The translations under genes and the position numbers were made by a program. From Octopus vulgaris (taxonomy: Eukaryota), in contig OX597828.1 in assembly GCA_951406725.2 (NCBI GenBank), positions 3,286,001-3,350,000 of the forward strand: a DNA stretch of 64,000 nucleotides. Reading direction: 5' to 3'. The notes under the pieces were generated by a model. It was not told the origin of the DNA and ran no database searches. It saw only the letters and a program-made list of their open reading frames with translations. Of this stretch, positions 49,138 through 50,574 are shown one piece after another. Numbering within the stretch: the stretch's first letter is position 1; each line of letters opens with the position of its first letter.

Positions 49138-49734
49138 ATTAATAAAAAGTTTCACTGTGGATTTCTTGAGTCGGCTTACCTACCGCTATATGTACATCAA
49201 ATTCCAAAATGGGAAATTAGAGAGAAAAATTATTGAAACGCAAAAAAGTCAAATGTGAACGTGGAAAGTACACATTCTAGTTTAGGGAAAATGCCGTAAT
49301 GAGCTTTCGGTGTTGTAACTGTTAGGAGAAAGAAAAGGAAGTAGTAGTTGAAAGGAAGATAATACTTAGACGAAAATGTTTTTGTGTTCGTGCTTAGACT
49401 CATACATACATACATACATACATACATACATACATATATATATACATATACATATATATATATAATATATATATATATATGTATATATATATATATATAT
49501 ATATATATACATATATACATATATATATATATATATATATATATATATATATATATATATATATATATATATATATATATAGTGACGTATTTTTGCCATT
49601 TCAATATGGCTAACCCCTAAGGGTGGAAGCTACTGTAGTTTTTAGCCCCAGGAGGACACACTCCTCCAGCTGGCCATAGACACACTATCTGTGTCCTGTC
49701 AGTATTTGCAAAGGGAAGTCATCCTTCCCGTCTT

Positions 49735-49804
49735 CAACTTATGATACACACGGACTCGAGTTTCGAGGTATTGACCTCTCGTCAGCGTGTGACAATCATA
49801 GTTG
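49735..49804 (-). ncRNA. Type I hammerhead ribozyme, full consensus
   Basis: cacacg CTGACGA gaggt-caat-acctc GAAA ctcgag TC cgtgtg (49791-49747); stem I extends via tatgat/atcata and caac/gttg; predicted cut between 49753 and 49752. Confidence 0.93.
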
Positions 49805-50086
49805 TCGCCGAGAATTAGATTTCCTTCACAAATACTTATACTTTTTCCAGCGTCCACTGTCGCTGATATTGAAAAAGTGAAATCAAACAATGATAAATAT
49901 CAAAGTGAGTTATATACAGTAGCGGTAACACATCCTGACGTATTTTTGCCATTTCAATATGGCTAACCCCCAAGGGTGGATGCTACTGTAGTTTTTAGCC
50001 CCAGGAGGACACACTCCTCCAGCTGGCCATAGACACACTATCTGTGTCCTGTCAGTATTTGCAAAGGAAGTCATCCTTCCCGTCTT

Positions 50087-50156
50087 CAACTTATGATACA
50101 CACGGACTCGAGTTTCGAGGTATTGACCTCTCGTCAGCGTGTGACAATCATAGTTG
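50087..50156 (-). ncRNA. Type I hammerhead ribozyme, identical second copy
   Basis: Same motif at 50143-50099; predicted cut between 50105 and 50104. Confidence 0.93.
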
Positions 50157-50574
50157 TCGCCGAGAATTAGATTTCCTTCACAAATACTTATACTTTTTCC
50201 AGCGTCCACTGTCGCTGATATTGAAAAAGTGAAATCAAACAATGATAAATATCAAAGTGAGTTATATACAGTAGCGGTAACACATCGTGACGTATATATA
50301 TATATATATATATAGGTATTGACCTCTCGTCAGCGTGTGACAATCATAGTTGTATATCACAAATACTTATACTTTTTCCACGTCCACTGTCGCTGATATT
50401 GAAAAAGTGAAATCAAACAATGATAAATATCAAAGTGAGTTATATACAGTAGCGGTACATCGGGCATCATGAAATGTGTACAACAAAAAATACGAAGCAG
50501 GAGTACATGGAACATGAACTATTCGTGCATTTACATACAGATTTCACGCTCAAACACTTCTTTCACCAACTATT

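Follow-up and report, generated by a model that had tools for sequence, protein, structure and literature searches.

Metazoan non-LTR retrozymes are short hammerhead-containing tandem repeats, and the available part of PMC7229834 describes mussel units of 350-390 bp, the axolotl element Rtz_353 and coral units of 225-245 bp, naming RtcB as the retrozyme ligase. According to a 2020 review, no motif of animal retrozymes reveals the retrotransposon that mobilises them (PMC7761336), and rolling-circle copying of their circular RNA is so far a proposal. Plant LTR retrozymes are built differently, with type III hammerheads, LTRs, PBS/PPT and 4-bp target-site duplications. Penelope-like elements (PLEs) also carry hammerheads, whose role is described as unclear. 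Their hallmarks, in the accessible part of bioRxiv 2021.04.23.441226, are 5′ truncation, inverted arms and a one-sided tail; the available text of PMC11167929 calls a tail from two adjacent internal reverse transcriptase (RT) start sites unique to PLEs. A bias toward (TA)n targets is found in Hydra and Naiad PLEs. Most recently, a July 2026 preprint, in the portion accessible, argues for a PLE origin of retrozymes from co-occurrence in vertebrates and pLTR homology, and reports in vitro cleavage of one of nine Xenopus retrozyme dimers (bioRxiv 2026.07.22.740005).

The window, meaning the whole stretch of 64,000 nucleotides of Octopus vulgaris DNA that was analysed, contains an insertion of the metazoan kind. 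Its features are listed below, with monomer positions numbered from the cut site.

49582 to 50294, minus strand: retrozyme insertion of two units plus 8 nt, with its 5′ end at about 163 and its 3′ end at site S (171)
50099 to 50143, minus strand: upstream type I hammerhead, predicted cut after 50105 (Rfam RF00163, E 6e-6)
49747 to 49791, minus strand: downstream type I hammerhead, predicted cut after 49753 (Rfam Hammerhead_1)
49753 to 50104, minus strand: 352-nt monomer between the predicted cut sites, a predicted linear or circular RNA
49932 to 49935, minus strand: internal site S, monomer 171-174, the 3′ end seen most often in the family and putative first priming site
49886 to 49890, minus strand: internal site T, monomer 216-220, the other of the two 3′ ends in the family
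49402 to 49581, no strand: (TA)n target tract adjoining the insertion's 3′ end
50295 to 50313, no strand: (TA)n tract adjoining the insertion's 5′ end
50314 to 50462, minus strand: third partial copy, monomer about 173-340, with internal deletions and a hammerhead broken off in stem II

TRF reports a period of 352, 2.0 copies and a 98% match at 49583-50295. The two units, of 353 nt (49583-49935) and 352 nt (49936-50287), differ by three substitutions and one indel, confirming the head-to-tail dimer in (TA)n that a preliminary description of this DNA had proposed. Its two-copy picture was incomplete, overlooking the damaged third copy at 50314-50462, whose hammerhead is predicted to be inactive. 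The 8-nt terminal redundancy it reported, GTGACGTA, does occur at both ends (49582-49589 and 50287-50294), flanked by (TA)n tracts, but it is only a tandem overlap of internal element sequence, at monomer positions of about 163-170: the copy starts near 163 and ends at S (171), so the redundancy amounts to two turns plus 8 nt. Reading the overlap as a target-site duplication was rejected because it is element sequence, and any target-site duplications would be masked by the (TA)n targets. A 219-bp duplication at window 50590-51031, with copies differing by 1-bp indels, adjoins the damaged third piece and is possibly local assembly noise.

Minus-strand CUGACGA cores begin at 50137 and 49785. 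Rfam Hammerhead_1 covers its whole model in each unit with 32.2 bits (E 6e-6), bearing out the type I hammerheads noted at first sight; they are absent from the Rfam gathering-threshold scan because this score falls just under the required 34. Each ribozyme has a 6-bp stem I, a 4-bp stem II with a UCAAUA loop, and a 2-bp helix III with a palindromic UCGA loop, which is the metazoan layout termed 'canonical' in the available part of PMC4209133. Stem III, initially described as a loopless palindrome, is palindromic but not strictly loopless. Cleavage at the two predicted sites would release 50104-49753, the 352-nt spacing originally given.

Folding predictions describe a stable RNA. A free energy of -124.7 kcal/mol is computed for the monomer (z = -6.5), a stability that 0 of 100 shuffles reach, and stem I joins the monomer's two ends in the predicted fold. 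Pairing of the two tandem hammerheads, another early suggestion, holds for the stretch between the ribozymes, where the double hammerhead is the predicted minimum (-159.9 versus -142.3 kcal/mol), but not for the whole insertion, where it lies 5.6 kcal/mol above the predicted minimum fold. In the predicted circle, the active ribozyme fold lies 5.9 kcal/mol above the minimum. Across 11 units from all subfamilies (66-100% identical), pairing is kept in 93.7% of cells, and both sides have changed in 14 of 74 pairs, some of them in the long stem joining the monomer ends; the structure tested came from the same alignment, and the changes represent few independent events. Covariation gives moderate backing for a conserved RNA fold as modelled.

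Judged by sequence-level criteria, the window element is a new member of the animal non-LTR retrozymes, the identity first assigned to it, and its family agrees with their sequence-level definition in the available part of PMC7229834. Like the retrozymes described there, it has a non-coding tandem unit of 150-450 bp (here 352-353 nt) with a GC content below 50% (here 42.6%), a type I hammerhead with a 6-bp stem I, a 4-bp stem II and a short palindromic helix III, a strongly self-paired monomer, and dispersed copies in a genome that also contains autonomous PLEs. The longest ATG open reading frame on the concatemer measures 54 aa, and no RT or GIY-YIG frame was found in the unit or joined to the copies examined. 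The two groups differ in that circular RNA and cleavage were demonstrated for the published retrozymes, whereas the window family is known from sequence and fold prediction. Conversely, the present family shows two fixed putative priming sites, arms inverted as S+T pairs, insertion into (TA)n and arrays that are clonal, an anatomy undescribed for metazoan retrozymes in the accessible text of that paper. Plant LTR retrozymes share hammerhead-processed non-coding circles mobilised in trans, circles that are proposed for the present family, yet the hammerhead of the window element is of type I, and its units stand head to tail with no arrangement as LTRs; assignment to the plant class was rejected on its type I topology and head-to-tail units.

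No match to the family was found in the metazoan retrozyme literature, in the portions available; the supplement of PMC7229834, as cited in its available text, lists further invertebrate examples that may bear on novelty. A literature search mostly confined to papers outside subscription, and to sources other than Repbase and Dfam, came upon neither a cephalopod retrozyme nor a description of such insertion anatomy, and the accessible main text of a 2026 octopus repeat annotation mentions neither ribozymes nor retrozymes.

Genome searches show that the family is widespread. Exact 33-nt hammerhead cores number 439 in the 2.8 Gb genome (control 0), and C17 joined to the 24 nt that follow the cut matches 925 times. 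The first 98 of the 439 core matches represent 60 loci; scaled up to all cores, this gives an estimate of about 270 young loci. Older subfamilies, about 88-92% and 66-71% identical, retain a period of 352-359 nt. The loci analysed are a sample comprising the best 40 candidates, the first 98 of 439 cores, the first 100 of 925 matches and all 18 non-C matches. Most contain 1-2 units, and the longest array has about nine. The core is intact in 164 of 167 young units, which were partly selected on the core, while 30 of 50 units in middle-aged subfamilies carry a U4C core, a variant reported as much slower in vitro yet active enough in vivo for a viroid (PMC3088659, available part). A nine-hammerhead array of an older subfamily (L145:1900-5050) has U4C in every core.

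Several other structures were seen alongside the main family. A head-to-head pair of a relative, 76-79% identical, falls outside the aligned subfamilies (L154:261-506). Two same-contig pairs with identical insertion structure, L009/L010 and L032/L037, lie 6 kb and 1 Mb apart and are segmental or assembly duplications. Scattered hammerheads with the same palindromic helix III and unrelated flanks (L196, L200, L201, L203 and L206-L208) are possibly the ends of another old PLE family.

Public data also contain the unit, with 20 runs from 11 studies holding more than half of its sequence words. Contigs of all four runs compared bridge the cut-site junction; none of these runs is recorded as RNA, and circle and tandem repeat look the same in contigs. 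Run X1, which is RNA by guess only, yields the whole unit as one closed 383-nt contig (353 + 30), not counted here as evidence for a circle, and run X15, of unrecorded kind, spans the same junction.

The anatomy of the insertions points to the machinery that made them. The 133 loci, including two look-alike duplicates, consist of 62 single arms, 63 inverted pairs and 8 complex structures. Different circular-permutation start points had been expected, and the 5′ ends do spread over the whole unit, but the 3′ ends are fixed at S (171-174) and T (216-220), about 46 nt apart. Single arms end at S in 44 cases, at T in 14 and elsewhere in 4; inverted two-arm loci combine S+T in 52 cases, S+S in 1, T+T in 0 and other ends in 10. 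TA repeats follow 160 of the 184 S or T ends, and the oldest subfamily has its 3′ ends at homologous sites. At whole turns the 5′ ends show no significant pile-up (p 0.04 over all arms and 0.34 in the least biased subset), nor do they show one at the cut site or site T, and its absence at T argues against L1-style twin priming. A DNA rolling-circle or satellite origin was rejected on the ragged 5′ ends, inverted arms and conserved RNA fold.

The interval of about 46 nt between S and T is a PLE-type tail. Hydra-clade PLEs likewise insert into (TA)n and show a hammerhead, 5′ truncation, partial tandems and an inverted 5′ arm (bioRxiv 2021.04.23.441226, accessible part), and the PLEs in the available text of PMC11167929 share the one-end tail and two internal RT start sites. 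Dimensions vary: the local PLE family has a tail of about 70 nt, published tails measure 30-40 nt, and site S lies 171 nt after the cut in the retrozyme versus about 30 nt in the local PLE. Fixed S and T 3′ ends, inverted S+T arms and (TA)n targets across the family support the mobilisation route already suspected from the dimer and make PLE-type mobilisation very likely.

Evidence on the template comes from the cut site and from shared variants. Copies read on across the cut site: C17 stands before the 24 nt that follow the cut in 925 matches, and a different base does so in 18. Among these 18 non-C matches, three arms begin at the cut site and most others have A or U at position 17; uniform stopping predicts 2.9 such starts (943 matches, 1 per 329 nt), and starts that happen to follow a C would be hidden among the 925. 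In young arms, junction positions are no more variable than the rest, with no junction hypermutation. A rare exception to read-through is an inverted pair in which both arms start exactly at the cut site (L107:1352-1776), as a cleaved linear monomer would be expected to give.

Clonality was measured in 88 young loci with 137 arms at no less than 96% identity, duplicates dropped. The variant tests left out arms below 96% identity and 8 nt at each arm end; among look-alike duplicates, L010 was removed from the junction, arm-end, core and clonality counts, and L037 and L061 from clonality. Within arms, 16 of 1359 pairs are discordant, compared with a permutation mean of 235 (minimum 186), and between arms 15 of 1095, compared with 189 (minimum 161). 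Locus-private substitutions occur in all copies 15 times, in some 4 times and in one copy 131 times. Arms of at least three copies gave 21 instances of an allele shared by every copy and 0 of an allele missing from the 3′-most copy alone. Sharing of alleles within a locus indicates that new alleles pass a one-unit bottleneck and that finished arrays are not homogenised. This clonality favours a monomeric circle as its simplest explanation, and the clonal arrays, together with read-through of the cut site, lend support to the rolling-circle origin put forward in the preliminary description. A homogeneous dominant source or clean template jumping may also produce clonality, and one source dominating in a given cell could make the two arms of a locus alike.

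The window insertion belongs to a family of several hundred scattered copies of a non-coding 353-nt hammerhead repeat, and we consider it likely that a Penelope-like RT/endonuclease made it by copying a monomeric circle through two turns. The cycle would begin with read-through transcription of a copy with two hammerheads. Self-cleavage is predicted to free the unit-length monomer, probably aided by pairing of the palindromic helices III, and a host ligase such as RtcB, by analogy with other retrozymes, would then close a circle whose predicted resting fold keeps the ribozyme off. As the insertion anatomy suggests, a PLE protein would nick TA repeats and prime RT at internal site S, often with a second priming from the other DNA strand at site T; the protein would most likely be that of a (TA)n-targeting Hydra-type PLE acting in trans. 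RT would cross the ligated cut site and continue over a variable distance, from <1 to about 9 turns, producing head-to-tail arrays whose 5′ ends are ragged and, where priming takes place on both strands, inverted S+T arms. Against this model stand the hammerhead-independent insertion by the anole PLE in vitro, the single cleaving dimer among nine from Xenopus, the common U4C cores of the middle-aged subfamilies, the position of the double hammerhead above the minimum fold of the whole insertion, the want of sequence shared with the two intact PLE families found, and the lack of a significant pause at whole turns in the least biased subset.

The best-surviving alternative retains the PLE and changes the template to an uncleaved linear multimeric read-through transcript, leaving hammerhead and circle off the insertion path. 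Such a template would explain read-through of the cut site equally well and would suit the weak helix III and the common U4C cores of older subfamilies. It also has a precedent in the anole PLE, for which RNA left unprocessed serves as the main substrate in vitro and the hammerhead is dispensable (PMC11167929, available part). We nevertheless regard it as unlikely: source arrays gather unit-specific changes (131 single-copy), which a linear template would transmit as mixed arrays, whereas the arrays are clonal for many different haplotypes and for the 15 locus-private alleles, and a 9-unit array exists while most loci contain 1-2 units. A second possibility, in which RT jumps repeatedly from the 5′ end of a cleaved linear template back onto the same molecule, would create clonal arrays without a circle. 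Stem I keeps the monomer ends together in the predicted fold, and one locus with both arms, as well as one single arm, begins exactly at the cut site. The junction, however, shows no surplus of 5′ ends, indels or substitutions, and the pattern of a terminally redundant template, an allele in all but the 3′-most unit, is missing against 21 cases of all units, rendering repeated jumping quite improbable.

Copying of a monomeric circle in trans, the preferred reading, needs a protein source, and a member of one candidate family lies in the window:

3185 to 5319, plus strand: Hydra-type PLE, 5′-truncated and frameshifted, with DKT and CxCX5C motifs and its own hammerhead motif, in (TA)n

This PLE is not physically part of the retrozyme and goes unrecognised by Pfam. 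A Naiad identity was rejected because the endonuclease is C-terminal and DKT and CxCX5C are present. The family is abundant and young, with intact 717-aa frames and a median identity of 99.7% among 17 copies; it carries a hammerhead motif, with a CCGAAGA (U4C) core in nearly all copies seen, targets (TA)n, and follows the S+T rule in all 11 inverted loci with both ends. Three of its four multi-unit arrays are clonal and one is mosaic. The mosaic one, a tandem and inverted array (L249, G000:C1:57213500-57222900), has units mixed for two haplotypes, which suggests template switching between RNA molecules, or recombination. A second intact Hydra-type family (L242-L245; G000 C27, C8, C4, C21) encodes a 727-aa frame and has its own minimal hammerhead upstream of the ORF. 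Unlike Hydra-clade PLEs, the retrozyme has no ORF, and it lacks sequence homology to these two intact families, pLTRs included (best blastn E 0.4 and 0.8); T ends of retrozyme and PLE are alike only in a short AT-rich motif. By target, timing and anatomy, either family is a candidate RT/EN source.

The same comparisons bear on a different origin, in which the copies are pLTR fragments of an undiscovered coding PLE or arise by local unequal crossing-over of solo copies (bioRxiv 2026.07.22.740005). Xenopus retrozymes are homologous to PLE pLTRs in the available text of that preprint, and our examination covered part of the retrozyme family and two PLE families. Against this, the sequence upstream of every hammerhead examined is the unit itself, and tblastn over the retrozyme loci returned only four old PLE fragments, the two inspected being set apart from the unit by microsatellite. 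Arrays of non-integer length, fixed 3′ and ragged 5′ ends, inverted arms and unhomogenised unit-specific changes add to the case, and we judge this origin very improbable. Xenopus retrozymes resemble the window family as non-autonomous hammerhead repeats tied to PLEs (bioRxiv 10.64898/2026.07.22.740005, accessible part). Their PLE link consists of co-occurrence and pLTR homology, whereas here it consists of insertion anatomy without pLTR homology, and local tandem amplification, proposed for Xenopus, is disfavoured for the octopus family. That the window dimer is an assembly duplication of a monomer is scarcely credible, since arms of several units are widespread, two whole hammerheads occur in 16 of the 69 loci that form the least biased subset, and one locus (L151) matches the window copy in 5′ end, 3′ site and 718-nt length, even though the surroundings look noisy, with the damaged third piece and the duplication carrying 1-bp indels, and the contigs of the four runs contain almost none of the window copy's private alleles.

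Other candidates for a linked PLE were also followed. Twenty loci with variant hammerheads proved to be older subfamilies or unrelated, with no intact PLE ORF, and two cores 3.25 kb apart on C2 are duplicates inside a satellite, again with no PLE ORF. The PLE fragments next to L194 and L217 are old insertions in their own right, and a short-tailed 'E' hammerhead pattern with three matches was dropped.

A broader reading, which we offer tentatively, is that a circular RNA lineage of viroid size, long-lived and lacking pLTR homology to the helper, exploits a Hydra-clade Penelope RT in trans as a parasite, both nicked DNA strands priming on one circle at two conserved internal sites for rolling-circle reverse transcription. 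If true, the genome would preserve a direct record of the retrozyme life cycle and would suggest ribozyme-made circles as the origin also of the PLEs' own tandem and inverted arrays, as the clonal local PLE arrays (3/4) may illustrate. The window locus alone is ordinary; the family provides unusually direct genomic evidence on the mechanism of retrozyme movement, in the form of an insertion signature specific to PLEs and of a haplotype test whose result favours a monomeric circle as template. With a 353-nt RNA, mapped priming sites and intact 717- and 727-aa Hydra-type proteins, the questions of mobiliser and template are both testable in vitro. A small circular RNA placed at TA repeats by one protein would also be of interest to gene-insertion engineering.

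Elsewhere in the window, a long imperfect inverted repeat with a CTGATGAG motif at about 2540-2880 looks like the head-to-head end of an old PLE-type insertion. Rfam matches resembling 5S rRNA and tRNA, at 37310-37428 on the minus strand and 48772-48844 on the plus strand, are probably pseudogenes or SINE heads. At 33136-34341 on the minus strand, a LINE fragment retains an RVT_1 frame (Pfam E 9e-22).
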